DNA from: an uncultured Pseudomonadota bacterium
Lineage (GTDB): Bacteria; Myxococcota_A; UBA796; SXON01
NCBI GenBank assembly: GCA_903885375.1
Contig: CAISIK010000054.1
Coordinates: forward strand, 3,403-67,402
Direction of reading: 5' to 3'
DNA length: 64,000 nucleotides
The position numbers and the translations under genes are program-made. Positions 4,835 to 59,597 of this stretch are shown here, piece after piece; the stretch's first letter is position 1, and each line of letters starts with the position of its first letter. The notes beneath the pieces are model-generated. The model saw nothing but the letters and a program-made list of their open reading frames with translations, was not told the origin of the DNA and ran no database searches.

Positions 4835-6561
4835 CCGCGGTCGACAAGCCATCCGCCACGGCGACCATCCCGCGCGTCGCCATCTACGCCCGTTGCTCGG
4901 CCGACAAGCAGGCAGAGAAGGACCTCTCCATCCCCGCCCAGCTCGACGCCTGCCGGGTGGGCGCGAAGCATCGCGGCTGGGAAGTGGTCGCCGACTTCGT
5001 CGACGCCGCTGAGTCGGCCACCACCGACGACCGCCCGCAGTTCCGCGAGATGATTGCCGCTGCGAAACAGAAACCGCCGCCGTTCGACTACATCGTCGTC
5101 TGAAAGTTCAGCCGCTTCTCCCGCAACCGCGAGGACAGCGTCCTCTACAAGCGGATCCTGGAGCGCAACCGCGTGCGCGTGGTCTCGCTCAACGAGCCCG
5201 TCGACGACTCGCCGTCGGGACGGATGCTGGAGGCGATCCTCGAGTCGGTGGACGAGTTCTACAGCCAGAACCTCGCCCAGGACATCTGTCGCGGCCTGCG
5301 CAAGAACGCCTCGATGGGCTTCCGCAACGGCGGTCCGCCATCCATCGGCTACCGCAAGCGCGCGACGGGGCCGTCCGACGGTGCGCCGCGGATCATCCTG
5401 GAGCCCGACCCGCAGCGGGCGCCGCTGGTCCAGCGCATCTTCCGCATGGCCCGCGCCGGCGAGGGCGTGACGAGCATCGCCGCCGCCCTCCACGCCGAAG
5501 GGATCCGCACGCCGCGGGGCAAGTCGCTGCTCAAGACGAGCATCCACAAGCTGCTGCTCAACGACGTGTACATCGGGGTGACGACCTGGGGCGTGCACCG
5601 CACCGGGCTCCAGAAGCACAAGCCCTCCGACCCCATCAAGAAGGCCGACACCCACGAGGGCCTCGTGAGCAAGGAGGACTTCGAGCAGGTGCAGCGCATG
5701 CTCGCCGCCCGGGCGCCCGAGATCGTCAGCCAGAACACGCTCGCAAGCGACTACCTCCTCTCGGGGCTGATCTTCTGCGCGCAATGCGGCTCGCCGTTCT
5801 TCGGCCACAACGCGCGGAGCGGCGAATACCGGTACTACGTCTGCCAAAAGAAGAGGAAGCTCGGCGCCGAAGCGTGTGCCGCGAAGCCGCTGCCGAAGGA
5901 CGAGACGGAGGCTGCGGTCATCGACCTGCTCCGACGCGAGGTCCTGTCAGCGAGGTACCTGCGCGAGCTGCTCGACCTCGTGAACGAGGAGGCCGACGCG
6001 GTCGGGGTGGCCGCCCGCGCGGACGTCGAGGCCGTCGCCGCGCAGCTCGCGGACGCTCGCCGCAAGCTCGACAACCTGTACCGGGCGATCGAGGACGGTG
6101 GGATCGACCTCTCCATCCTCGCCCCGCGCATTCGCGAGGTGAGGAGCAACGTCGACACGCTGACGGCGAACCACGCGCGACTCGCGACGGCGTCCACACC
6201 GGTCGTCCGCCTCGCCGACGACGCCACCATCGCTCGCTACGTCGAGCGCCTTCGCGCGATCCCCGCGACGGGCACGCCAAACGCCCAGCGCGCCTTCCTC
6301 CGCGCCTGGATCGCGCGCATCGAGGCCGACGGCATGAAGCTGACCGTGACCTTCACGCTACCCGCCGACCTTGGCGGATCCTCCGCGAACCACGGGGAGA
6401 ACTCTGGTCGGACCAGAGTTCTGCCCCGGGTTGCGAATGGTGGAGGCGGCGGGAGTCGAACCCGCGTCCGAAGCATCATCCAACTCTCGAGATACGTGGC
6501 CTTCCGCATACCCTGCGGCGGGTGTCATCCCCTTTGGGGATCGTCAGAGCTCCCTGTTTGA
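4831..6561 (+). pseudogene. Large serine recombinase (resolvase/invertase N-domain plus recombinase and coiled-coil C-terminal domains) interrupted by an in-frame TGA at 5101-5103
   Basis: 'RVAIYARCSADKQ' carries the catalytic Ser motif. 'FDYIVV*KFSRFSRNRED' corresponds to the conserved '..vvWklDRlsRn' motif, so the stop replaces the Trp codon (TGG to TGA). ORFs 4738..5103 and 5173..6561 are in the same frame. The ORF tail runs through the tmRNA 3' end. Confidence 0.85.
6394..6426 (-). terminator. Strong GC-flanked hairpin 12 nt downstream of the tmRNA CCA end (terminator/processing signal, or a recombinase site)
   Basis: 'agaactctggtc g gaccagagttct' is a perfect 25-bp palindrome at 6398-6422, flanked by ggg/ccc. 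No U-tract follows. Confidence 0.35.
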
Positions 6562-6806
6562 ACTTCGTTCGTCCGCCGGTTGCCCATCCGCGGAGTCGCT
6601 GCGTGCCTGGATTACACCCGAATGAGGTCGGCCGGTCTCATCCGAATGCCGAGGGCTCGTAATGGCCCTCGGACTTCAACTAAGCCGCGAGGGCCTGGGT
6701 GAAGTGTTCGCTGTTGTTGGCAGCTTGGTTTTGGTTCACTCACAGCGGAACCACACTCGCCACGCCCGTCGGTATTCAGACACCTCGTCGAAACCGGTAC
6801 GCCCCC
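6438..6806 (-). ncRNA. ssrA: tmRNA (SsrA), 369 nt
   Basis: On the minus strand the 5' end is 'GGGGGCGTACCGGTTTCGACG' and the 3' end is 'GGACGCGGGTTCGACTCCCGCCGCCTCCACCA'. The acceptor stem has a G3:U pair. An internal tag ORF (6680-6721, minus) reads GCC AAC AAC AGC GAA CAC TTC ACC CAG GCC CTC GCG GCT TAG, which translates to ANNSEHFTQALAA*. Confidence 0.92.
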
Positions 6807-9419: not shown

Positions 9420-11288
9420 ATGATCGACCCCGAAACCGCGCCCGAGGGCGCGGAGGCCGCGGCCCCCAAGGCGCCCGCCCGCAGTGACTACAAGAGCGAC
9501 CGCACCTTTGCGGATTTCCCCATCTCCCCCGCCGCCCTTCAGGCGCTCGGCGACATGGGCTACGTCAACGCCACCCCGGTGCAGGCCGCCACGATCGAGC
9601 CGGCCCTCGCGGGCAAGGACCTGATCGTCCGCGCCAAGACCGGCACCGGCAAGACCACGGCCTTCGGCCTCCCGATGATCGAACGGGTCGAAGCCGGCGC
9701 CCGCGCCACGCAGGCCCTCGTGCTCACCCCCACCCGCGAGCTCGCCGTGCAGGTGGCCCAGGAAGTGGCGCTGCTCGCGAAGTACCGGGATGTCCGCATC
9801 ACCGCGATCTACGGCGGTGTCGGCTTCCCCCCCCAGGAAGATGCGCTTCGTGCCGGCAGCGAGATCGTGGTCGGCACGCCCGGCCGCCTGCTCGACCACA
9901 TCCGTCGCGGCAACCTCAAGCTCGACCAGACCCGCGTAGTGGTGCTGGATGAAGCCGACGAGATGCTCTCGATGGGCTTCTTCGAGGATGTGCGGAAGAT
10001 CGTGGGCGCCTGCGCCCCCGACCGGCAGACGATGCTGTTCTCCGCCACGCTCGATGAGTCGCTGCGTGGCTTCGCGAACAACTACATGAAGAGCCCCGAG
10101 GACCTGCACCTGAGCGCCGATGGCGACAACGTGCACCTCATCCAGCACTTCCTGTACGAGACCTCGCCCGACTACCACAAGGCCCGCGCGCTGCTCGATC
10201 TGATCGAGCTCGAGCGCCCGCACTCGGCGATCATCTTCTGCAACACACGCGAAGATGTATCAACCGTCTACACCTACCTCGATCGTCAGGGTCTGGGCGT
10301 GGAGATGCTCTCGGGCGAGCTCGCCCAGAAGCAGCGCGAGCGCGTGATGGCGCGGATCAAGGGCGGCGCGGTGCAGTTCCTCGTGAGCACCGACGTGGCG
10401 GCCCGCGGGATCGACATCAGCAACCTCTCGCACGTCATCCACTACGCGCTCCCGGAAGATGCGTCGGTGTACCTGCACCGCTCGGGCCGTACCGGCCGAA
10501 TCGGCAACGAAGGCACGGTCATCGTGCTTGCCGGTGGCGCCGACTTCTCCACGCGGCTCACGCTGGAGCGCCAGCACAAGATCAAGTTCGAGCTGAAGGT
10601 GCTCCCCACGGGTGAGGAGAGCGCCAAGCTCCGGACCGACCGCTTCGTGCGCATGGTGAAGGAAGCCTCCGGCACCATGGTGTACGACTCGATGCTCGAT
10701 GCCGCCAAGGCGATCAAGCAGCGGCCCGACGCGGACATGCTCATCGCCGTGGCGCTCAAGGCGTTCATGGAGTGGGATCGCAAGCGGAAGTTCGCGGCGG
10801 CCGATGCCGCGGCCGACGAGGCGGGCGAGGAGCGCCCCGAGCGTACCGAGCGCCCCCCCCGGCGCGATGAAGGTCCGCGCGGCGGCGGTCGGGATCGGAA
10901 CGACCGGCCGGGTGGTCGCCCCGACCGCGGCGATCGCCGCGATGCCGGCCCGCGGGATGGTCGTCGCGAAGGCGGTCGCGAGGGCGGTCGCGAGGGTGGC
11001 CGTGATGGCCAGCGGCGCGATGAGGCCCGTCCCCCGCGCCCCGAGCGTGTGGAAACCCGCGAGCACACCCCCCGTCCGGTGGCGGAGGTCGCGCCGAAGG
11101 CCGAGATCGCGCCCCAGAGCGAGGGTGCCGAGGGTGGCGAGGGCGGTGCAGAGGGCGCCGCCTCCAAGCGGCGGCGTCGTCGGCGGCGCAGCGGCGGTCG
11201 CGGTGAAGGTGGCGGCTCCGAGGGCGCCGGCTCCGAAGGCGGCGGCTCCGAGGGCGGCGGCTCCGAAGGCGGCGGCTCCGAGGACTGA
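9420..11288 (+). CDS. DEAD-box ATP-dependent RNA helicase with a long Arg/Gly/Asp-rich and GGSEG-repeat C-terminal tail
   Basis: Q-motif 'ATPVQAATI', Walker A 'AKTGTGKT', 'VLDEADEM', 'SAT', 'HRSGRTGR'. The tail reads 'GGREGGREGGREGG...GGSEGGGSEGGGSED'. Confidence 0.92.
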   Translation: MIDPETAPEGAEAAAPKAPARSDYKSDRTFADFPISPAALQALGDMGYVNATPVQAATIEPALAGKDLIVRAKTGTGKTTAFGLPMIERVEAGARATQALVLTPTRELAVQVAQEVALLAKYRDVRITAIYGGVGFPPQEDALRAGSEIVVGTPGRLLDHIRRGNLKLDQTRVVVLDEADEMLSMGFFEDVRKIVGACAPDRQTMLFSATLDESLRGFANNYMKSPEDLHLSADGDNVHLIQHFLYETSPDYHKARALLDLIELERPHSAIIFCNTREDVSTVYTYLDRQGLGVEMLSGELAQKQRERVMARIKGGAVQFLVSTDVAARGIDISNLSHVIHYALPEDASVYLHRSGRTGRIGNEGTVIVLAGGADFSTRLTLERQHKIKFELKVLPTGEESAKLRTDRFVRMVKEASGTMVYDSMLDAAKAIKQRPDADMLIAVALKAFMEWDRKRKFAAADAAADEAGEERPERTERPPRRDEGPRGGGRDRNDRPGGRPDRGDRRDAGPRDGRREGGREGGREGGRDGQRRDEARPPRPERVETREHTPRPVAEVAPKAEIAPQSEGAEGGEGGAEGAASKRRRRRRRSGGRGEGGGSEGAGSEGGGSEGGGSEGGGSED

Positions 11289-20837: not shown

Positions 20838-23399
20838 TCAGAACGCGCTGCCGATGGTGAAGTCGAAGACGGCGGTGCGCTCGTCGGGGAGGGGCTCCAG
20901 CGGGAAACCCCACTCGAAGCGAAGGGGGCCGATGGGGCTGAACCAGCGGATGCCGAAGCCGACGCTGGTGCGGAGGTCGCCGAGGTCGACGCTGCCGTTG
21001 CCTTCGGCATCGCCGAAGGTGTTGCCGGCATCGAGGAAGGTCACGAGCGAGATGCCCGCCGCCTTGATGATGGGCGACTCGATCTCGAACTGGTTGATGA
21101 GGGTCTGCGTGCCGCCGATGACCAGGCGGTCGTCGGCCGACTGCGGATCGTCGGTGCCCACGAAGGAGGTGCGGGTCTGGCCGTAGTCGCGGAACCCGGT
21201 GGCCCGGATGGAGGGGCCGAGGGCGTAGGGCTCGAACCCGCGGATGCTCAGGATGCCGCCCGCCCGGTAGCGGTGGATGTAGGGCACCACGCTGCCGTCG
21301 GTGCTCTGGATGTAGCCGGCCGACAGGTTGTACTTGAAGACCAGCCAGTCATCCTTCACCAGCGGCTGGTAGAAGCGGAAGTTGGCCTTCGTCTCCCAGT
21401 AGTTGAAGTCGCCGCCGAAGATGGAGACCACCTCCTTGTCGTTGAGGCGGAAGCCGCCGGCGAGATCGCTGGAGATCGAGAACTTCACGCCGCGGGTGGC
21501 GTTGATGCGGTTGTTGCGCTTGTCCACCTCGAACGTGAGGCCGCCGGAGGAGGTCACGCCGTTGCGGTAGAGCTGCCCGCCGAAGATGCGCTCCTTGTAC
21601 TCATCCAGCGAGAGCAGGCCGTTGTCCTCGATGGTGTAGTCGAGGGCGAGGCGGATGTCGTCGCGGGCATCGAGGTAGCGCCCCACCTGGAAGACGCCGC
21701 CGCGCTGGTACTCGTCCTCGATGTAGCTGCGCTGGTTGTAGAAGCCGCTCACCCGCATGGTCCAGCGGGAGTCGAGGAAGTAGGGATCGTAGAAGTCGAC
21801 GCTCGCGGTCTGGGTGGGCCGGCTGATGTTGCCCGCCAGCGAAACCACCCAGCCAAGGCCGAAGAAGTTCGACTTCTGGATGTTCGCGGTGAGCAGGAAG
21901 CTGTCCACCGAGCTGAACCCGGCGCCCACCGTGAAGCTTCCGGTGGGGCGCTCGGACACATCCACGTTCATGTCGAGCGTTCGCTCCTCGCTGGCGCGGG
22001 GCGTACTGATCTCGACCGTTTCGAAGAAGCCGAGCCGCTCGAGCCGCTGGCGGGCCTCGCGAATGCGGCTGCCCTGGTAGTCCTCGCCCTCGTTGATCGG
22101 GATCTCGCGGCGGACGACCTTGTCGAAGGTCGGATCGTTGCCGGTGATGTTGATCTTGCCGATCTTCATCTTCTCACCCTTCTGGATGTCGAAGGTGAGA
22201 TCGACGACGCCGGAGGCCGGGTCGGGCGAGGGCAGCGGTACGACGTTCGCGAAGGCGTAGCCCTGATCGCCGTAGAGGTCGGACACCCGTTGGGTGACCC
22301 CCTGCATCGTCGTGATCTTGAACCAGTCGCCCGTGCGCAGGGGCTGGTCCTGCCCGGCGAAGTCGAAGAGGCGACGGTCGACGCGGGGCGACCAGGAGTC
22401 ATCGATCGTGACGCCGGCGGCCTTGTCGCGCTTGAGGGCCTCCTGCACGTCGCGAAGGTTCTTGCCCTCGGCCAGCGCGCGCACGGCGCCGGCGGTGAGG
22501 CCTTCTTCGGCCACGAAGTCGCCCGTGAGGTTCAGCTTCCCGATCTTGTACCGGGGCCCCTCGGTAACGTGGATGGTGATGAAGATGTGGCGCTTGTCGG
22601 GGGAGAGGAAGACCTTCGGCTGATCGACCTGGGCCTCGACGTAGCCCTCCTCGAGGAGCACCGAGCGGACGACGTACACGTCGTTCTCGAGGTTCGACTC
22701 GATGAAGTTGCCCGAGCTGGTGAGCCAGGGGACGATGCCGCCTTCCTTGGTCTGCAGGAAGCGCTTGATCTTCGCGTCGGGCACGCCCTCGTTGCCCGTG
22801 ATGTCGATGTTCTGGACGATGACCTTGCGGTTCTCAACGACCTGGAACTCGAGATCGACCAGATCGTCGCCGGCGGGGGTGAGCACCGGCTCCACCGTGG
22901 CGAGGTAGAAGCCCTTCTCGAGGTACTTCTCGCGGATGGTCCGGGCGTTCTGGGCGATGCGCCGGTCCGATGGCACCGAGAGCGCGCTGATGTCCACCGC
23001 CTCGCGCAGATCGTCGTCCTTGATCTTCTTGTTGCCCTTGAAGCGCACCTCGCGGACGGCGGGCTTCTCGCGCACCACGAAGGTGACCAGCACGCCCGAC
23101 TCTTCGCGGGCGAGGCGCACGAGCACGTCATCCACGTAGCCGGTGGCCCAGATGGCCTTGATGTCGCGCTGCACCTTCCAGGGGGCGAGCGCATCGCCCG
23201 TGCGGAGGCCCACGGCATCGAGCACGGCGGCCTCTTCCACGCGACGGAGGCCCACGACCTGGACCCGACCGACCGTGCCGGTGGCGACGAGCGGCGCGCC
23301 CGCTTCATCGACCGCGGCCGGAGAGGCCACGGCCGGCTCTTCTGCCCGGGCCCCGCCCACGAAGGCGAGCAGCCCGAGCCACAGCACCGCGCCCGTCAT
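20838..23399 (-). CDS. bamA: Outer membrane protein assembly factor BamA
   Basis: 853 aa with a signal peptide, repeated POTRA-like segments and a C-terminal beta-barrel ending '...FDFTIGSAF'. Confidence 0.9.
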   Translation of the reverse strand: MTGAVLWLGLLAFVGGARAEEPAVASPAAVDEAGAPLVATGTVGRVQVVGLRRVEEAAVLDAVGLRTGDALAPWKVQRDIKAIWATGYVDDVLVRLAREESGVLVTFVVREKPAVREVRFKGNKKIKDDDLREAVDISALSVPSDRRIAQNARTIREKYLEKGFYLATVEPVLTPAGDDLVDLEFQVVENRKVIVQNIDITGNEGVPDAKIKRFLQTKEGGIVPWLTSSGNFIESNLENDVYVVRSVLLEEGYVEAQVDQPKVFLSPDKRHIFITIHVTEGPRYKIGKLNLTGDFVAEEGLTAGAVRALAEGKNLRDVQEALKRDKAAGVTIDDSWSPRVDRRLFDFAGQDQPLRTGDWFKITTMQGVTQRVSDLYGDQGYAFANVVPLPSPDPASGVVDLTFDIQKGEKMKIGKINITGNDPTFDKVVRREIPINEGEDYQGSRIREARQRLERLGFFETVEISTPRASEERTLDMNVDVSERPTGSFTVGAGFSSVDSFLLTANIQKSNFFGLGWVVSLAGNISRPTQTASVDFYDPYFLDSRWTMRVSGFYNQRSYIEDEYQRGGVFQVGRYLDARDDIRLALDYTIEDNGLLSLDEYKERIFGGQLYRNGVTSSGGLTFEVDKRNNRINATRGVKFSISSDLAGGFRLNDKEVVSIFGGDFNYWETKANFRFYQPLVKDDWLVFKYNLSAGYIQSTDGSVVPYIHRYRAGGILSIRGFEPYALGPSIRATGFRDYGQTRTSFVGTDDPQSADDRLVIGGTQTLINQFEIESPIIKAAGISLVTFLDAGNTFGDAEGNGSVDLGDLRTSVGFGIRWFSPIGPLRFEWGFPLEPLPDERTAVFDFTIGSAF

Positions 23400-29618: not shown

Positions 29619-29749
29619 GGCGGCGCCGCGCTGCGGAGGGCGAGCGCCCACCCCGAGGTGGGGCAAACACGCAGCGCCCCCCAAACCCTTCGTCGAATTG
29701 CCTTGCCTCCACGGTGGCCCTGCTTACAACGAGCGGGCACTAGACTGAC

Positions 29750-33257: not shown

Positions 33258-34826
<1,569 letters not shown>

Positions 34827-34915
34827 GGCAACGCGCGTCTGCCCGTCCGCCTCCGGGCGGCGGGCGTCGCGGCGCGTTGCGGCGCCGTCGGGGCGGCCGC
34901 TGGATACGTCGGGGG

Positions 34916-35632
34916 GTGCCCGCGCTCCCCACCGCCAGCGAGACCGCGATCCGACGTGTCCGCCGCCTCCTTGAACCGCTGGCGCGCTACCATCAGTTCA
35001 CGATCGAAGGCCTCGCGCACCTGCCCCGCGAGGGGCCCTGCCTGCTGGTCGTGCACCACTCCTTCGCCACCTACGACGGCTTCCTGCTCGGCGGCGCGAT
35101 CTTCGAGCAGATCGGCCGACTCCCGGTCGGCCTGGGCGACAACCGCATCTTCCAGCTCGGTCGGCTCGGGGGCTGGGCTCGGGCGATCGGGCTGGTGCCG
35201 GCCTCCCCGGTGGCCGGTGAGCAGGCGCTTCGTGCCGGACAGATCCTGGCCGTGGCGCCGGGCGGCATGTGGGAGGCGCTCCGACCCCGAAATGAACGGC
35301 GCACCACCCGCTGGGGAGACCGCCGGGGCTTCGCCCGCCTCGCGCTCCGCGCCGGCGCACCGATCGTGGTGGCAGCCGTGCCCGCCGCCGACGACCTCTA
35401 CACCGTCTACCCCAGCCGCCTCACCGACGCGGTATACCGACGTGCCCATTGGCCGGTGCCTCTGGTGCGTGGGCGCGGACCTACGTTGCTTCCACGCCCC
35501 ATCAAGCTCACCGGCTACTTCGCCCCGGCCATCGTGCCTCCGCCCTTCGAGGCGCAGTACGAAGAGGAGCAGGTGGCCGCGCTGGCGGCCGAAGCGAAAG
35601 CTCGGATGGCAGAGCTGCTGCGGCGCCCCTGA
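34916..35632 (+). CDS. Lysophospholipid/glycerolipid acyltransferase-family protein (PlsC-like)
   Basis: Read in the frame of ORF 33452..35632 with a GTG start at 34916. Motifs include 'LLVVHHSFATYDG', 'GFARLALRAGAPIV' and 'VAPGGMWEA'. The start is uncertain. Confidence 0.55.
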   Translation: MPALPTASETAIRRVRRLLEPLARYHQFTIEGLAHLPREGPCLLVVHHSFATYDGFLLGGAIFEQIGRLPVGLGDNRIFQLGRLGGWARAIGLVPASPVAGEQALRAGQILAVAPGGMWEALRPRNERRTTRWGDRRGFARLALRAGAPIVVAAVPAADDLYTVYPSRLTDAVYRRAHWPVPLVRGRGPTLLPRPIKLTGYFAPAIVPPPFEAQYEEEQVAALAAEAKARMAELLRRP

Positions 35633-35664
35633 GGGGTACCCGGGAAGCGCGCGTCCGGCACGGC

Positions 35665-35948
35665 CCGCCCCGACGGCGCCGCGTCCTGCACGGCCCACCA
35701 ACGCCAGGCCGCCGCAGCAAGCCTCAACGGCGCTTCGACGGCGCCCTCGACAGCGCCGCCCCGCCAGCGCGGTGACGGGCTGGGTGACCGTGCGGGCCGA
35801 CCCGACCGATGCCCGTTGCGGGCCGACGGAGGGCCGGACCGCGCCGGCAGGACCCCACACCGACCTTCCGGTCGCCCCCTCTCAGGGCGCGACGACGAAT
35901 CGCCGCCCCGACGGCGCCGCGTCCTGCACGGCCGCCGCTCGGAGCTCA
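35665..35948. repeat. 284-bp direct repeat, copy 1 (bounded internally by a 31-bp direct repeat)
   Basis: It aligns to 36875-37158 at a constant offset of 1210 bp, with 9 mismatches and no indels over the last 282 bp by eye. 'ccgccccgacggcgccgcgtcctgcacggcc' occurs at both 35665 and 35903. Confidence 0.85.
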
Positions 35949-36776
35949 ATCGCGAGCCAGCCACTCCAGAACGGCCCGGATGCCTCCGTGCCGATGCAGG
36001 TCGCTGTGGCCGCCCCCCGGAAACGTGACGAACTTCTTGGGCTCCGCCGCCGCCTCGAACAGCTCGCGACCGAGTCGGTAGGGAACCACGGTGTCCGCAT
36101 CACCATGCAGGACAAGGACCGGCGCGTGCACTTGCCCGATCTTCGCGATGCTGTCGAACCGATCCTCGATGAGGAGTCCCACGGGCAACCAGAAGAACCT
36201 GTCCCGCGCCACATCGACGATGCTGGTGAACGGCGCCTCGAGCACCAACGCCCTGGGGTGCGCCTCGACGGCGATCTGCGTGGCAACGCCCGTCCCGATG
36301 CTCTGCCCGTAAACGACGAGGCGCTCCGGGGAAAGGCCCTCGGCGGCGAGCCACGAGAGGGCGGCCCGGCCATCCGCGTACAACCCCTCCTCCGATGGTG
36401 ATCCCGGGTTGCCCCCGTAGCCCCGGTACTCGCACATGTAGAAGCCGTACCCCTCTTCGACAAAACGCCGCGCCTTGAAGGCCCGGTGCCCGATGTGACC
36501 GGAGTTGCCATGGAAAAACAGGATCACGGGGCGGGAGGGCGAGGCCGGCGGCGCATACCAGGCGAAGAGGTCGAGGCCATCGGCGGTGCGCACCTGCACC
36601 CGGCGCGCCTGCGGCAGCTTCGCGGCCTCAGGCGTTCCGGGCGAGGACCGGGCGGGTTCGTACTGCAAACGCCGTTGGCCGAGGTACACCGCGGCCACCA
36701 CGAGGACGTAGGCGACGACGGCCACCTGCACCAAGCGCCGCGCCCGCCGCAGCCAAACGCCACTCGCGGACGGCAT
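35946..36776 (-). CDS. Alpha/beta hydrolase (membrane-anchored, BAAT/serine aminopeptidase S33-like)
   Basis: Start at 'MPSASGVWL' (cat at 36774-36776). It has an N-terminal TM segment, the nucleophile elbow 'GQSIG', 'LHGDADTVVP' and 'GGGHSD'. Confidence 0.8.
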   Translation of the reverse strand: MPSASGVWLRRARRLVQVAVVAYVLVVAAVYLGQRRLQYEPARSSPGTPEAAKLPQARRVQVRTADGLDLFAWYAPPASPSRPVILFFHGNSGHIGHRAFKARRFVEEGYGFYMCEYRGYGGNPGSPSEEGLYADGRAALSWLAAEGLSPERLVVYGQSIGTGVATQIAVEAHPRALVLEAPFTSIVDVARDRFFWLPVGLLIEDRFDSIAKIGQVHAPVLVLHGDADTVVPYRLGRELFEAAAEPKKFVTFPGGGHSDLHRHGGIRAVLEWLARD

Positions 36777-36874
36777 CAAGGGGATCGTGTCGGTGGCACG
36801 CCCGTTCTGTATCCAGCGCGGCCGCCCCCCGACGGAAACGCGCCGGCAGGCCCGCCACCGACGCTTCCACGTCG

Positions 36875-37158
36875 CCGCCCCGACGGCGCCGCGTCCTGCA
36901 CGGCCCATGAACGCCAGGCCGTCGCAGCAAGCCTCAACGGCGCTTCGACGGCGCCCTCGACAGCGCCGCCCCGCCAGCGCGGTGACGGGCTGGGTGACGG
37001 TGCGGGCCGACCCGACCGAGGCCCGTTGCGGGCCGACGGAGGGCCGGACCGCGCCGGCAGGACCCCACACCGATCTTCCGGTCGCCCCCTCTCAGGGCGC
37101 GACGACGAATCGCCGCCCCGACGGCGCCGCGTCCTGCACGGCCGCCGTGGGGAGCTCA
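36875..37158. repeat. 284-bp direct repeat, copy 2
   Basis: See copy 1. It ends 5 nt before the metK stop codon (37163-37165). Confidence 0.85.
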
Positions 37159-37162
37159 GCGA

Positions 37163-38332
<1,170 letters not shown>

Positions 38333-38567
38333 GGCTTCTGGGTCCTTGGGAAAGCGGCGCAATCTGGCCGGTTGGACGTCTCACGTCAAGCACAGTGTGC
38401 GCACCGGTGGGAGGGGACCCCCCGCTTTCGGGCCGGCGGTACCGGGGACTACCGAGCACACTTCGACATATCGCGATGTACCGCTGCCCCTCGTGCGCGC
38501 CCGCGCCCCGGCTTTCGCGTCGTCCAGTTCTGCTATGCTCCCGCTTCTCCCGGGAGGTCGCGGTTTC

Positions 38568-39683
38568 ATGGCCGAGCCCGTCGTCGAATTCAACAACGTT
38601 TCAAAGACTTTCGCCGGGCAAAAGGCCGTGCGCGCCATCTCCTTCCGCATCGAGAAGGGGGAGTTCTTCTCCATCCTCGGTCCCTCGGGCTGCGGCAAAA
38701 CGACCACCCTGCGCCTGCTCGCCGGGTTCGAGGTTCCCGACGAGGATGGCGGAGAGGTCCGCATCGAGGGCCAGGTGGTCAACAACCGCCGCCCCTACGA
38801 ACGCCGCCTTGCCATGGTCTTCCAGAACTACGCGCTCTTCCCGCACCTGAGCGTGGAACGCAACGTGGCGTTCGGGTTGGAGCAGCGGGGCGTGCCCCGC
38901 GCCCAGATGGTGGAGCGCGTGCGCGCCGCCCTCGACATGGTCCGCCTCGATCCCGCCCAGTACGGCCCCCGGCCGCCGGCCGCGCTCAGTGGCGGCCAGC
39001 GGCAGCGTGTGGCGCTCGCCCGCGCCCTGGTGCTGGAGCCGTCGATCCTGCTCCTCGACGAGCCGCTCGGCGCGCTCGACCTGAAGCTCCGCAAGGAGAT
39101 GCAGCTCGAGCTCAAGTCGCTCAACCGTCGGCTCGGCATCACCTTCGTGTACGTCACCCACGATCAGGAAGAAGCGCTCACCATGAGCGACCGGATCGCG
39201 GTGATGGACAACGCCCGCGTGGCCCAGCTCGGCGCCCCCGCCGAGATCTACGAGCGGCCGCGGACCGCGTTCGTGGCGCGGTTCATCGGCGAAAGCAACT
39301 TCGTGATCGGCGAGGTGGTGGCCACCGAGCGAGGCGGCGTCGTGGTGAAACGGGCCGACGGCAACCTCGTGGCCGCGCGTGGGGGGGAGGGTCGCGCGAT
39401 GGGCGAAACGGTCCAGCTCGCGGTGCGTCCAGAGCGGGTGGAGCTGACGGGTCCCGACCAGGCTCCCGGGGGCCAGAACATGTTGCCGGCGCGGATCCGG
39501 CAGGTCGTGTACCGGGGTGAGATGCTCCACGTGCGCGCCACCCTCGGCGATGGCTCCGAGATGGTGGCGGCCATGCGCAACGAAGGCCAGCTACGTCGCC
39601 CGGTGGTGTGGCAGGAGGGCACCGAATGTGCGGTGACCTTCTCGCCCGATGACACCCGCGTGCTGGAGCCGGAGCCCGCATGA
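38568..39683 (+). CDS. potA: Spermidine/putrescine ABC transporter ATP-binding protein
   Basis: Walker A 'GPSGCGKTT', 'LSGGQRQRVALARAL', 'LLLDEPLGALD' and a C-terminal TOBE-like domain. ATG at 38568. Confidence 0.85.
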   Translation: MAEPVVEFNNVSKTFAGQKAVRAISFRIEKGEFFSILGPSGCGKTTTLRLLAGFEVPDEDGGEVRIEGQVVNNRRPYERRLAMVFQNYALFPHLSVERNVAFGLEQRGVPRAQMVERVRAALDMVRLDPAQYGPRPPAALSGGQRQRVALARALVLEPSILLLDEPLGALDLKLRKEMQLELKSLNRRLGITFVYVTHDQEEALTMSDRIAVMDNARVAQLGAPAEIYERPRTAFVARFIGESNFVIGEVVATERGGVVVKRADGNLVAARGGEGRAMGETVQLAVRPERVELTGPDQAPGGQNMLPARIRQVVYRGEMLHVRATLGDGSEMVAAMRNEGQLRRPVVWQEGTECAVTFSPDDTRVLEPEPA

Positions 39684-50329: not shown

Positions 50330-53092
50330 TCAGTAGCCACCCCCCGAAAAGAACCAGACCGCGCCGGCGTCGGGCGCGCTGCTGCCATCGTAAGGAGCGC
50401 CCACGGCGAGGTCGCCGAAACCATCGCCGTCGGCATCGCCGAGGCTGGCCACCGCCGCGCCGAAGCGGCCTGCTCGGGTGCCCTGGAGGCTGGCCGAGGC
50501 CGCCGCCGTCGTGAAGCTCACCGAGGCCACCGGGCCCGCGAAAACCCACACCGCGCCCACGCCGCCGTGAGCCGGCGCGCCTACCGCGATCTCGCCAGCG
50601 CCATCGCCGTCGAGGTCGCCGACGGTCACCGACGCGCCGAAGTCGGCGCCGCCCGCGGGGTCGAGGAGCTGGCTCTCGAAGACCACCCCGGCCCAGTCCG
50701 CCGAGGAGGCGAGCACCCCGGGGAAGACGTACACGCCGGCCCCGGCCAGCGTGCTCGCCGCCACCACCTCGTTGGCGCCATCGCCATCCACGTCGGCCAC
50801 CACGGGGGCGACCGCGCCGAGCGCCTCGTTGGTGTCGTTGCCAAGGATGATGCCGGAGCAGTCGGTCATGGCGCGGGTGCCGGTGAACGGGCCGCTCACG
50901 TACACGAGTGCGCCGTTGTCCACATGCGAGTAGTCGAGCTCGGGCGCACCCACCACGGCGTCGGTGATGCCGTCGCCATCGAGGTCGCCGGTGGTGATGC
51001 TGGCGCCGAACGCGCTGTCGCCCCAGGTGGCGTAGATGAGGGCGGACTGCAGATCGCCGAGGAGGCGGCTGCCGGTGGCCTCGCCGGGCACGACCACCAC
51101 GCGGCCATCACCCTGGTCGGGGTGGCGGTACACGCCCACGAGGAGCTCGGCCGCGCCGTCGCTGTCGGTGTCGTCGACCACGCCGAGGGCGCCGCCAGCG
51201 AGCACGCTCGCATCGCCCGACGACACGCTCAGGTCGGCGCTGGTGGCCGAGAGGAAGCCGCCGGTGGCGGAAGCGAAGCGCCGGAAGCCGCTCGACGCGG
51301 CGTCGGCGCTGTTGGGCTCGCCGAAGAGGAGGTCCGCGAGGCCATCCCCATCCACATCGCCGCCGGACGCGAACACCGAGCCGAACTCGGCGGCCGTGCC
51401 CACGCCCACCACCGCGAGCGGCCCCACGTCCACCTCGGCGTCGGTGGCCGGGCGAACGAGGCCCACGAGGCCGGCGCCGCCGCCATCGTCGTAGCCGGGC
51501 ACGCCCACGAGCAGCTCGTCGAGGCCATCACCGTCAAGGTCGCCCGCGGCGGCGAGCGAGGCGCCGAGCCGATCGTAGGCCGAGGGGCCGAGGTACCAGA
51601 GGCTCGCGTCGGCGTCGGTGAGGCTGCCGCCGAACGTGCAGGCACCGGGGAGGTCATCGCAGTCATCGTCGAGGCCGTCGTTGCACACCTCGGCGGCCCC
51701 CGGCGAAACCGCCGCCAGGGAATCGTCGCAATCCTCGCCCGTGGCTTCGGTGTACGGCGCTTCGGCCATGCAGAGGCACGAGGCGGAGCCGGCGTAACCA
51801 TCGCCATCGAGGTCGGCGTAGAAGGCGGTGCAGGAGGCCAGCACCTCGGGGTCGTTGCCATCCCCATCGCAGTCGCTGTCCACGGCGTCGCACGCTTCGG
51901 CAGCGCCCGGATACACGCTGCTGGCGGCATCGTCACAATCGCCGGCGGAGGCGGCGTAGCCGGCGGGCGCGGTGCAGGCGCTGCTCGTGGTGCTCGTGCC
52001 GTACCCATCACCATCGCCATCGAGGTACCAGGTGGGCACGCCGATAGCCGCGCTCGTGTCGTCACAATCGCCGGCCGACTCGGCCGGGTGGGTGCTGGTG
52101 GAGGTGCAGGCGCAGACGAGGTCGGCCGAGTTGCCGAGGCCGTCGCCATCGGCATCGGCATACCAGTCCTCGCAGCCGACGGCGCCGAGATCGTTGTTGT
52201 CCCCATCGCAGTCGTCGTCGCGGGTGGAGGCGCAGTCCTCCGGCACGTCCGGCCCGCGGGTGGCATCGGTGTCGTCGCAGTCGAGCCCGAGGTTGCCTTC
52301 GTCGTCGACCTCCGTGGCGCTCCGGGCGCCATCGCCATCGCGGTCCCAGTCGTCGCCGCCGGAGCAGTCGCTGTCGATGCCGTCGTACCAGACCTCCTCG
52401 GCGGCCGGCGAACGGTCCCGATCGGTGTCGTCGCAGTCGCCCTCACGGCCCGCCGGCACCTCCCCTGGGTAGTCCGCGGCGTAGAAGCCATCTCCATCCT
52501 GATCGCCGTCGTTGCCGTCACAATCCTGGTCGACCTCGTCGTACCAGACCTCGGGGATCGAGGGGTTCACGGTGTCGGTGCTGTCGTCGCACTCATCGCA
52601 GAGGCGGTAACCATCGTGATCGGCGTCGAAGTCGGTGCCACCGCTGCAGTTGGCATCGACCCCGTCGTAGGCGGCATCCTCCGCGCCGGGGTGCACGTCG
52701 GCCGGATCCGGGGCCACCAGCGCCACATCGCAATCCCCGGCGGACTGCGGCACGTCGTCGAGCCCGGCATCGTCGAAGCAGTCATCGCCCCCGAACCGGT
52801 CGGACACGTGGCCATCGCCGTCCTGATCATAGTCGTCGAGATCATCGCAGTTGCTGTCGACCCCGTCGTACAAAGCCTCCTCGGCGCCGGGGTGGATGCC
52901 GGCGGCGCTGTCATCGCAGTCGTCGTTCACGGACACCGCGCCCTCGACCTCCTCGCAGGTGCGCACCGGCTGCTTGCCGTGCCCATCCCCATCGAGATCG
53001 AGGTACAGACCATCGAGCTCGCAGCTCGCCTGCCGGGCTGCCCACTCGGCATCGGTCACGAACGTGCAGGCCGCGAGCCAGAGCATCCACAT
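50330..53092 (-). CDS. Large surface lipoprotein with MopE-type Cys-rich metal-binding repeats (N-terminal half) and FG-GAP/VCBS repeats (C-terminal half)
   Basis: Lipobox 'MWMLWLAAC'. There are more than 10 repeats of 'DCDD....V.PGA.E...DG.D.DCDG', followed by repeated 'GD.DGDG..D..VGAP'. Confidence 0.8.
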   Translation of the reverse strand: MWMLWLAACTFVTDAEWAARQASCELDGLYLDLDGDGHGKQPVRTCEEVEGAVSVNDDCDDSAAGIHPGAEEALYDGVDSNCDDLDDYDQDGDGHVSDRFGGDDCFDDAGLDDVPQSAGDCDVALVAPDPADVHPGAEDAAYDGVDANCSGGTDFDADHDGYRLCDECDDSTDTVNPSIPEVWYDEVDQDCDGNDGDQDGDGFYAADYPGEVPAGREGDCDDTDRDRSPAAEEVWYDGIDSDCSGGDDWDRDGDGARSATEVDDEGNLGLDCDDTDATRGPDVPEDCASTRDDDCDGDNNDLGAVGCEDWYADADGDGLGNSADLVCACTSTSTHPAESAGDCDDTSAAIGVPTWYLDGDGDGYGTSTTSSACTAPAGYAASAGDCDDAASSVYPGAAEACDAVDSDCDGDGNDPEVLASCTAFYADLDGDGYAGSASCLCMAEAPYTEATGEDCDDSLAAVSPGAAEVCNDGLDDDCDDLPGACTFGGSLTDADASLWYLGPSAYDRLGASLAAAGDLDGDGLDELLVGVPGYDDGGGAGLVGLVRPATDAEVDVGPLAVVGVGTAAEFGSVFASGGDVDGDGLADLLFGEPNSADAASSGFRRFASATGGFLSATSADLSVSSGDASVLAGGALGVVDDTDSDGAAELLVGVYRHPDQGDGRVVVVPGEATGSRLLGDLQSALIYATWGDSAFGASITTGDLDGDGITDAVVGAPELDYSHVDNGALVYVSGPFTGTRAMTDCSGIILGNDTNEALGAVAPVVADVDGDGANEVVAASTLAGAGVYVFPGVLASSADWAGVVFESQLLDPAGGADFGASVTVGDLDGDGAGEIAVGAPAHGGVGAVWVFAGPVASVSFTTAAASASLQGTRAGRFGAAVASLGDADGDGFGDLAVGAPYDGSSAPDAGAVWFFSGGGY

Positions 53093-55693: not shown

Positions 55694-55808
55694 GCCGAAC
55701 GGCCGGCGCGCCGCGACCGGCCGCTGGGGTTGCCAGGGCACGCGCGCGCCGGGCGCGATCGTGGCGGGTTCCGCCTGGTGGCGGCGGACCGCCGACCCCG
55801 GCAGCAGG

Positions 55809-55955
55809 CGCGTAGCTCGACCTTCTCCGGCCAGAACCCCGAGCTACGCGTCGTGGCGGCGCTTGGCTCGACCTTCGACGGCCACAACCCCGAGCTACGC
55901 GTCGTGGCGGCGCTTGGCTCGACCTTCGACGGCCACAACCCCGAGCTACGCGTCG
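55809..55955. repeat. 51-bp tandem repeat (about 2.8 copies) with hairpin potential; REP/BIME-like
   Basis: The unit 'gctcgaccttc(tc/ga)cggcca(g/c)aaccccgagctacgcgtcgtggcggcgcttg' starts at 55815, 55866 and 55917. There is an exact 11-bp inverted repeat, cgcgtagctcg (55809-55819) with cgagctacgcg (55840-55850). Confidence 0.8.
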
Positions 55956-56049
55956 GGGTGGCGCGCGGCGGGCGCGCGGCCACAGGAGGCACTCACAAAA
56001 CTCGCGGGAACGCTTGCCACCTCGCGCCGGGTGCCTACCCTGCGCCGCC

Positions 56050-59472: not shown

Positions 59473-59597
59473 CGTGGGCGAGCGTATTCCGATCAGCGCC
59501 GCGAATCGCTGCGTCGGCGCCCACCCCGAAGCGGGGCAAACGCGATTCGCCCACCCGTCGCTCCTCCCCTCGGCGCCCCAGAACGCGGTACTCTCCC

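Follow-up and report, generated by a model that had tools for sequence, protein, structure and literature searches.

Several kinds of short, non-coding bacterial DNA resemble a repeat that we describe here from uncultured Myxococcota. Palindrome-associated transposable elements (PATEs), derivatives of the IS200/IS605 insertion sequences, are strand-specific elements of a few hundred nucleotides with neither terminal inverted repeats nor a visible target duplication. Repetitive extragenic palindromes (REPs), bacterial interspersed mosaic elements (BIMEs), and enterobacterial repetitive intergenic consensus (ERIC) sequences are dispersed, intergenic, foldable, and often transcribed at the 3' ends of operons, and they are substrates of recombination. 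Integron attC sites, including those in clusters of attC sites lacking integrases (CALINs), are direct repeats that follow open reading frames (ORFs) of the same orientation; mycobacterial interspersed repetitive units (MIRUs) are tandem units of 46–101 nt inside operons; and the omega RNAs of TnpB and IscB, like HEARO RNAs, are structured, multicopy RNAs of a few hundred nucleotides tied to a right end of the IS200/IS605 type. The stretch analyzed here, 64,000 nt of contig CAISIK010000054.1 from assembly GCA_903885375.1 (hereafter the window), contains two direct 284-nt copies, R1 (35665–35948) and R2 (36875–37158), of a previously undescribed interspersed repeat element, R, one on either side of an alpha/beta hydrolase gene that lies next to metK. 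To judge from comparison of its copies, R is probably a non-autonomous mobile element resembling the derivatives of IS200/IS605.

R shares with PATEs all of the features just named. In addition, a conserved tetranucleotide typically abuts its left end 20–24 nt from the foot of a hairpin (the comparable distance from left end to hairpin in IS608 is 19 nt), internal-deletion derivatives keep their ends, and the same hairpin lies at both ends in direct orientation, although only in the subfamily comprising the window copies and a copy on metagenomic contig SXGQ01552394.1 (L027). It differs from PATEs in that no TnpA or TnpB partner was found near its copies, in that a long subfamily in the metagenome-assembled genome (MAG) GCA_947484175.1 lacks the right-end hairpin, and in that the body of the element folds into a large, conserved multi-helix structure whose ends pair to close it, a feature not described for PATEs.

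The resemblance to REP, BIME, and ERIC sequences covers dispersal, intergenic position, frequent placement at transcribed operon ends, foldability, recombination, and lack of coding capacity. REPs, however, are palindromes of 20–40 nt that occur in both orientations, form inverted clusters, and are linked to REP-associated tyrosine transposases, whereas R is a unit of 240–330 nt that folds in a complex way and whose place relative to CT(G/C)A or a stop codon is fixed. Its size, and the restriction of its 31-nt terminal motif to the R copies within the window, place it outside the REP/BIME class. As with attC sites, R copies are direct repeats behind ORFs of the same orientation, the ends of the site can pair, and an ORF together with one repeat can be lost precisely; R is nevertheless twice the size of an attC site, has no consensus boxes, arrays, or integrase, and shows a crossover at a point that is not a fixed site. 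MIRUs likewise are intergenic, are oriented with their flanking genes, overlap stop codons, and are partly tandem (R has about 1.2 units plus a remnant after R2), but they carry small overlapping ORFs and have no complex conserved fold. The likeness to omega and HEARO RNAs in size, structure, and copy number is offset by the absence of an adjacent nuclease gene and of any Rfam match to the HEARO or IS605-orfB motifs at E values up to 1–5. R is not a miniature inverted-repeat transposable element, its ends being direct rather than inverted. Nor is the pair R1/R2 a diversity-generating retroelement: the mismatches between them go both ways and involve all bases, the repeats are non-coding, and there is no reverse transcriptase among the called genes. 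The lack of a reverse transcriptase and the multicopy state of the element are also grounds for rejecting a retron non-coding RNA.

A Dispersed Family of Repeats

A repeat search and pairwise comparison place R1 and R2 at a constant offset of 1,210 nt, with nine mismatches in 284 positions (plus-strand repeat positions 34, 35, 48, 125, 146, 200, and 274–276), no insertions or deletions, and a longest identical run of about 76 nt. The initial annotation of this locus had reported the same offset and mismatch count by eye. A 31-mer, CCGCCCCGACGGCGCCGCGTCCTGCACGGCC, matches the 64 kb exactly four times even when up to three mismatches are allowed (at 35665, 35903, 36875, and 37113), always inside the R copies, and does not match the shuffled window sequence at all. 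The second match in each copy begins 238 nt after the first. On the plus strand the 31-mer opens each copy, and the second occurrence stops 15 nt short of the copy end, so that the description of each copy as beginning and ending with this sequence is accurate for the start and only approximate for the end. The two occurrences per copy are real; we read them not as a bounding direct repeat but as a hairpin motif with which the unit starts and which returns at its right end. The second occurrence is either that right-end version of the hairpin or the beginning of a following unit that is truncated.

R is not a duplication specific to this locus. The independent first evidence for a family came from a sensitive blastn comparison of the region with the loci of relatives, in which the core of R (about 97 nt) matched a contig (L012) of MAG GCA_947484175.1, whose metK is 90% identical to that of the window, at 81%–82%. 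The matching copy lies at a different locus from metK, between converging genes for a Thi4/DAO protein and a redoxin; the blocks GGGTCCTGCC and GTCACCCAGCCCGTCAC are identical to those of R, and the hairpin between them carries compensatory changes. A pattern of these two blocks scanned against 185,579 genomes, one per species, found nine copies on seven contigs, all of this MAG, and none in the other 185,578 species representatives. The pattern GTCACCCAGCCCGTCAC...GGCTTGCTGC had no match in the JGI metagenomes, and a second metagenome pattern built on two other blocks returned one true member and one chance match (L026). The true member, L027, represents a third lineage and has a single copy behind a NUDIX gene.

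A family hidden Markov model (HMM; nhmmer), whose profile includes the window copies, recovers R1 at E = 1.1e-50 and R2 at E = 1.9e-48, and a covariance model of the core scores them at 95–97 bits. Copies within the MAG are 73%–89% alike; the window copies are about 58%–60% like the MAG copies and 68% like L027, and R1 and R2 are 98% alike over the core. HMM and covariance model together detected no further copy in the window or in about 270 kb of relatives' loci, including those of relatives whose metK is 96%, 91%, and 86% identical. The copies visible for the window's species are thus the two at this locus, within 64 kb. Positions are non-orthologous: the window has no copy at the Thi4 locus, and the MAG has none behind metK. 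The exact 31-mer had no match in the 185,579 species representatives, a collection that does not contain the window's species itself; two scans of viral contigs found nothing, and blastn against plasmids gave no match for R or for a MAG copy.

One unit of the element is about 240–330 nt long and has no coding capacity. A concatenated six-frame translation of R, compared with proteins to detect spurious ORFs annotated over other copies, had no match, and the indels and compensatory pairs among copies argue against a protein-coding element. Rfam 15 gave no relevant match in 34500–39000 at E values up to 5 and none at the loci of four other copies at E values up to 1; over the whole window only a tmRNA passes the gathering scores. 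The suggestion in the initial annotation of a non-autonomous repeat element or an element associated with 3' untranslated regions (3' UTRs) is borne out to the extent that R belongs to a dispersed, structured family found behind unrelated genes, and its proviso that the repeat might be unique to this locus is contradicted by the copies in the MAG and in L027. The family, dispersed in a small clade of uncultured freshwater Myxococcota, adds an undescribed and structurally constrained repeat to what is known of this poorly known group.

Anatomy of the Unit and Its Conserved Fold

The sense strand of the unit is the minus strand of the window, the strand of metK and the hydrolase gene. From its 5' end the unit begins with a short leader and the hairpin motif, GCCGUG-CAGGA-CGCGGC followed by GCCGUCGGGGCGG (the 31-mer in reverse complement). 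Two variable segments then enclose a long irregular hairpin, itself set between two invariant blocks, and the second of these segments is followed by a further invariant block, GGCUUGCUGCNNCGGC. R2, directly after the metK stop, comprises a 15-nt leader, the 31-nt hairpin motif (37113–37143; GGCCGUG-CAGGA-CGCGGCGCC plus GUCGGGGCGG in the sense direction), a body of 207 nt, and the second 31-nt hairpin motif (36875–36905), and its core scores 97 bits. The long irregular hairpin of its core lies at 36975–37078, with the invariant blocks GGGUCCUGCC and GUCACCCAGCCCGUCAC on either side. The corresponding parts of R1, which overlaps the hydrolase stop, are the left-end motif at 35903–35933, the right-end copy at 35665–35695 (both located with the 31-mer), and the core hairpin at 35765–35868, located by alignment, fold, and covariance model (95.3 bits). 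The family HMM match to R1 spans 35698–35976, and comparison of left junctions with other family members indicates that its left end probably extends to about 35957, in which case the final three hydrolase codons and the stop would belong to the element. The extreme left ends of the two copies differ: that of R1 is CTCGCGATTGAG, 24 nt from the hairpin, and that of R2 is TCGCTGAG, 20 nt from it.

A remnant of a further, internally deleted tandem unit lies on the minus strand at 36839–36868, between R2 and the hydrolase start; these 30 nt align to element positions 79–109 with 27 of 31 positions identical, a score reached by none of 500 shuffles, and the covariance model has a weak match of 18 bits at 36774–36866. 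The right end of R1 is followed by a degenerate half-motif (35647–35664), which alone is not significant (23 of 500 shuffles reach its score), and a tandem-repeat search with TRF reports an array of 30-nt period there (35646–35712). On the plus strand at 34879–34897, which is the left edge of the lineage-specific island described below, a 19-nt sequence, GCGGCGCCGTCGGGGCGGC, is identical to the 3' half of the hairpin motif; it runs in the sense of a neighboring 522-aa gene and is inverted relative to R1 and R2. It is partly ancestral, relatives having similar sequence (13–15 of 18 positions) at the same place.

The hairpin motif recurs at the right end of the element in the window and in L027, where a single element has a 47-nt direct terminal repeat with a spacing of 282 nt. 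Since L027 is an unrelated locus, it is the element, rather than the hydrolase locus, that accounts for the hairpin–body–hairpin layout. The long subfamily of the MAG has the hairpin motif at the left end only, and a 107-nt derivative in the same MAG (L024, 6153–6259, plus strand), which lies antisense between two tandem genes, retains the hairpin motif and a right end of the window type, CTGCGACGGCCTGACGTTGGTGGGCC, without the core. A repeat search detected no terminal inverted repeats at the ends of R, and the flanks of R1, R2, and the L027 copy contain no duplicated target.

The copies share a fold. An RNAalifold consensus of 13 copies contains 57 pairs, in which 94.3% of the alignment cells are paired, compared with 32%–47% when partners are slid by one to three columns; changes on both sides of a pair occur in 38 cells, against 13.1 ± 3.2 in shuffles (none of 500 reached the observed value). 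Compensatory pairs include 154:211 (CG in nine copies, GC in four), 157:208 (CG5/UA5/GC1), 158:207 (UA5/CG3/GC3), and 177:189 (CG8/GC4). The core hairpin between GGGUCCUGCC and GUCACCCAGCCCGUCAC and a closing helix, GCCGNGCAG with CUGCNNCGGC, are both present in R1 and R2. The 5' arm of the left-end hairpin motif has a second potential partner in the distal block CUGCNNCGGC, with which it would form helix P1. Position 54:305 of the closing helix always pairs, through C-G in MAG copies, U-A or U-G in those of the window, and G-C in L027. A G-U pair at 150:214 is invariant and several other pairs are U-G, from which it follows that the fold belongs to the sense strand of metK and the hydrolase gene, whether as RNA or as single-stranded DNA. 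An alignment of MAG copies alone prefers a different pairing, of the hairpin loop GCAGGAC with GUCCUGC; because all bases involved are invariant, the alignments are equally compatible with this pairing and with P1. Folding of single R sequences, which the initial annotation had proposed for the minus strand, gives energies no better than those of shuffled sequences on either strand (z about -0.3), a measure that is uninformative in DNA of 77% G+C.

Position of the Copies Relative to Genes

Nine of 11 copies lie directly behind a real gene on the same strand, and these genes are unrelated in function: metK, alpha/beta hydrolases, Thi4/DAO, a ybaK-like editing domain, a protein with TSP3 repeats, UDP-glucose dehydrogenase, and NUDIX. 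No transposase, integrase, or reverse transcriptase gene stands beside any copy. Among the long MAG copies, all eight with the hairpin loop motif have the tetranucleotide CT(G/C)A (once CAGA), which ends 29–30 nt ahead of that motif (the L012 copy, from which the motif is deleted, was left out of this count); in R2 and L027 the corresponding distance from the end of CTGA is 25 nt. These offsets put the tetranucleotide against the left end. In at least six copies the TGA of the tetranucleotide is the stop codon of the upstream gene. The TGA stop of metK, which abuts the left end of R2, is native, since metK genes of relatives without the element end alike. A position behind stop codons as regular as this is unusual and could expose the target choice of such elements.

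Within the window, the metK gene for S-adenosylmethionine synthetase (37163–38332, minus strand; 389 aa) contains all three Pfam domains of that enzyme, and the hydrolase gene (35946–36776, minus strand; 276 aa) has Pfam Hydrolase_4/abhydrolase matches and an N-terminal hydrophobic segment. Convergent with the hydrolase gene is one for an acyltransferase (34916–35632, plus strand; 238 aa; Pfam Acyltransferase). Pfam thus upholds the identities first given to these three genes; NCBIfam does not name the hydrolase, the acyltransferase, or the 522-aa protein specifically. The hydrolase stop (35946–35948) lies within R1, as described earlier, and the end of R2 is 4 nt, rather than the 5 nt first counted, from the metK stop (37163–37165). 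The length and C-terminus of the hydrolase are normal for its family. The initial annotation noted spurious ORF N-termini created by the repeats, and ORFs that begin inside the repeats do exist, at 34811–35860 and 35946–37070 (both minus strand). Elements of this kind can both create spurious ORFs and extend or replace the C-termini of proteins, as the last three hydrolase codons illustrate.

A Lineage-Specific Island Downstream of metK

By its metK, the source organism falls among uncultured Myxococcota (MAGs labeled "Deltaproteobacteria"). Its closest relatives, with metK 96% identical, keep the ABC-transporter operon, metK, the 522-aa gene, and a BcrAD/DUF2229 gene, and have only one 161-aa ORF in the interval from metK to the 522-aa gene. 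Sequence homologous to that of these relatives breaks off in the window at 34885 and 37151, so that about 2.26 kb (34886–37150), carrying the acyltransferase gene, R1, the hydrolase gene, and R2, is specific to the window's species and replaces 617 bp, including the 161-aa ORF. An ordinary terminator-like hairpin follows metK in the relatives where R2 now sits.

The hydrolase forms its own 90% cluster, its next best match being at most 58% identical, and it is missing from all sister lineages at this locus; the gene is accordingly a recent arrival. In other relatives the slot next to metK holds different cargo (two genes for proteins of 520–530 aa, an amino-acid permease gene, or mreB), and the variable regions downstream of metK in these relatives contain no direct repeats. 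On this comparison of gene content, the metK neighborhood is a hot spot and the bracketed hydrolase gene is young.

The other side of metK differs as well. Genes for a LysR regulator and a TauE-like permease separate the ABC operon from metK in the 96% relatives (L003 6193–7868, L006 6163–7838); the window's species lacks both (about 38333–38560), and hence both flanks of metK are variable.

Probable Recombination between the Two Copies

The exact hydrolase protein is encoded on 21 contigs, which come from 35 blocks of public assemblies, and the exact metK protein on 22 contigs, of which 21 have the hydrolase gene. The order R–hydrolase–R is kept in L001, which is 99.98% identical to the window over 20.8 kb, and in the slightly more distant L002 (99.5%). 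In the remaining contig, L029 (GCA_903902615.1), metK is followed by a single repeat and then by the acyltransferase gene, and the contig is exactly 1,210 bp shorter. The single repeat is a hybrid with the R2 state at positions 8–10 and 84, the R1 state at 138, 159, 236, and 249–250, and no change beyond these diagnostic positions; its flanks (5,174 and 1,303 nt) are identical to those of the window. The initial annotation had predicted a precise deletion of the hydrolase gene by recombination between the copies and had proposed looking for metK next to the acyltransferase gene; L029 matches that product base for base, with one repeat between the two genes, so that the deposited contigs differ in the presence of the hydrolase gene.

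The identical flanks, together with the presence of the hydrolase gene in the more distant L002, indicate that L029 is a derived loss and that the hydrolase-bearing state is older. The crossover falls at positions 85–137 in the body of the repeat, outside the 31-mers, which points to general homologous rather than site-specific recombination. L029 reflects either loss of the hydrolase gene by homologous recombination or an artefact of the assembler. A similar choice applies to L001, which differs from the window at four positions in 20.8 kb, three of them in R2 (L001 9619–9902, corresponding to window 36875–37158): at repeat positions 84, 138, and 159 it has the R1 state, a tract of at least 76 nt that represents either gene conversion or an assembly chimera. 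With two copies at a distance of 1.2 kb, a recently gained gene becomes removable, and sites of such elements are places where metagenome assemblies may disagree.

Nature of the Element

The family, its fold and gene positions, the island, and the haplotype of deletion type are established by the comparisons above; the mobility, present or past, that we ascribe to R rests on the non-orthologous positions of its copies, a deletion derivative that keeps both termini, the lack of coding capacity, the fixed flanking tetranucleotide, the direct hairpin ends, and strand specificity. These traits come closest to IS200/IS605-derived elements, and the most likely mechanism is one in their manner: R would be moved in trans through a single-stranded intermediate and inserted 3' of a short target, leaving no inverted ends and no target duplication and carrying direct subterminal hairpins. 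The insertions that survive would be those beside the TGA of a stop codon, and a target containing TGA would explain both the sense orientation of the copies and their position right behind ORFs. At the present locus one copy would have inserted behind metK and one behind the recently acquired hydrolase gene; the two, 1.2 kb apart, would exchange sequence by gene conversion and serve as substrates for RecA-type recombination that removes the hydrolase gene with one repeat. Several observations weigh against such a history. No transposase, Y1 TnpA, or TnpB was seen in the related DNA inspected, which amounted to about 330 kb; the long MAG subfamily, with a left hairpin only, fits poorly with a two-hairpin IS200/IS605 model and, with copies 73%–89% alike, looks old and inactive; and a large closed fold is atypical of elements derived from IS200/IS605. 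Two of the 11 copies lie antisense between tandem genes (rsgA and acnB; a clp-like gene and an unknown ORF), and the left flank of R1 is CTGG, the exception to CTGA. There is also no third copy in the 64 kb of the window's genome, R1 and R2 are far closer to one another (97%) than are other family pairs, and L029 may be a product of the assembler.

The closeness of R1 and R2 bears on the origin of R1, which arose either by transposition behind the new hydrolase gene or by local copying of R2, the 97% identity reflecting youth or gene conversion. A purely local origin, in which R1 was copied from the element downstream of metK when the hydrolase gene arrived, so that the bracket records one acquisition rather than two transpositions, is a tentative alternative that we consider clearly less likely than the main reading; Campbell-type integration of a circle carrying the hydrolase gene and R into a resident R, or a segmental duplication followed by loss, would be possible routes. 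It would account for the identity of 97%–98% between R1 and R2 against 58%–89% for other family pairs, for the recent arrival of a gene with no close relative and no counterpart in sister lineages, and for the lack of a third copy in 64 kb, and the reverse reaction would also leave a single-repeat hybrid haplotype. Yet the repeat boundary meets the hydrolase stop just as at other family loci, as transposition but not an arbitrary duplication would predict; the left extremes CTCGCGATTGAG and TCGCTGAG differ; the identical flanks of L029 and the hydrolase gene of L002 mark L029 as derived and not as a pre-integration state; and gene conversion, of which L001 bears a trace, can explain the high identity. 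Another reading, which seems to us rather unlikely, is that R is a host-functional 3'-UTR RNA maintained by selection (a terminator or insulator, a block to exonucleases, or a source of 3'-derived small RNAs) whose spread is secondary. The conserved fold with compensatory changes among paralogues and sense-strand G-U pairs, the co-orientation of nine of 11 copies directly behind an ORF, the ordinary terminator-like hairpin of relatives at the R2 position, and the ability, on inspection of the sequence, of the 3' strand of P1 to pair alternatively with the right-end hairpin copy are all in keeping with such a role. The two antisense copies, however, are well preserved outside any 3' UTR, the orthologous genes in sister genomes do without the element, single-sequence folding energy does not exceed that of shuffles, a promoter and terminator scan of 34700–37400 found nothing, including no terminator-like site, and no Rfam family matches; the covariation, moreover, can be inherited from master copies and need not mean selection in situ.

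The cassette structure proposed in the initial annotation, if taken in the integron sense, would make R an attC-type site and the hydrolase gene with R a unit moved by a site-specific recombinase. An ORF between near-identical direct repeats of the same orientation, 5' and 3' ends that can pair (P1), and the precise loss of the ORF with one repeat in L029 do recall a cassette, but we regard the idea as very improbable: R has no RYYYAAC/GTTRRRY boxes (the nearest sequence is GTTGGTG, in R2 GTTCATG, with no complementary 5' box), its unit of 240–330 nt compares with 57–141 nt for attC, the other copies stand solo behind core genes (metK, Thi4, UDP-glucose dehydrogenase, NUDIX, ybaK-like) rather than in arrays, no integrase occurs among the called genes in 20 kb around the locus, and the L029 crossover lies in the repeat body. 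More improbable still is that misassembly created the duplicated repeat and its bracket. The 284-nt repeats do exceed the length of the source reads, which appear, from the accession series and the label "BUCK21," to be 2 × 150-nt reads assembled with MEGAHIT, and the mosaic R2 of L001 and the collapsed repeat of L029 show that assemblies differ here. Against this, 21 of 22 contigs from many samples and assemblies have the same R–hydrolase–R order, R1 and R2 carry fixed distinguishing sites common across strains, and the largest k-mer in the default MEGAHIT list exceeds the roughly 76 nt of their longest identical run, so that collapse of the repeats by this program is not expected.

The interpretation of R as a non-autonomous mobile element leaves room for a more specific and more speculative one, to which we give little weight, that R is a new kind of stop-codon-seeking element: either a single-strand transposon whose CTGA target would make it land precisely behind ORFs, or a new class of structured 3'-UTR RNA of about 250 nt required for its own propagation in the manner of an omega or bridge-type guide RNA. 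Were this so, pairs of copies would turn an intervening gene, here the hydrolase gene, into a unit that a population can drop or keep by recombination.

Other Features of the Window and Its Relatives

The tmRNA gene lies at 6438–6806 on the minus strand (Rfam RF00023, 97.6 bits); ARAGORN predicts the tag ANTSPRPSRLS*, which has an unusual ending. A second repeated motif, GCGCCCACCCCGARGYGGGGCAAAC, forms a short hairpin with a compensatory change and occurs on the plus strand of the window at 29644–29668 and 59517–59541, as well as at L001 17109–17133, L003 15048–15072, and L027 14343–14367. The BcrAD/DUF2229 gene has one copy about 80 nt upstream of it, which is kept at the orthologous place in the 96% relatives; the motif may serve this lineage in regulation or as a terminator.

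Other repeats in the window are local. At 55807–55964 a 51-nt tandem unit is present in 3.1 copies of 93% identity, with an inverted repeat in each unit (CGTAGCTCG...CGAGCTACG). The many diverged internal repeats at 50394–53009 and 20968–21029, which are 35–62 nt long, GC-rich, and periodic, are probably coding sequence of large surface proteins with FG-GAP or thrombospondin-type repeats. At 11205–11283 lies a 15/30-nt tandem repeat that stays in frame (4.9 and 2.6 copies) and is probably a Gly/Ser/Ala-rich coding repeat.

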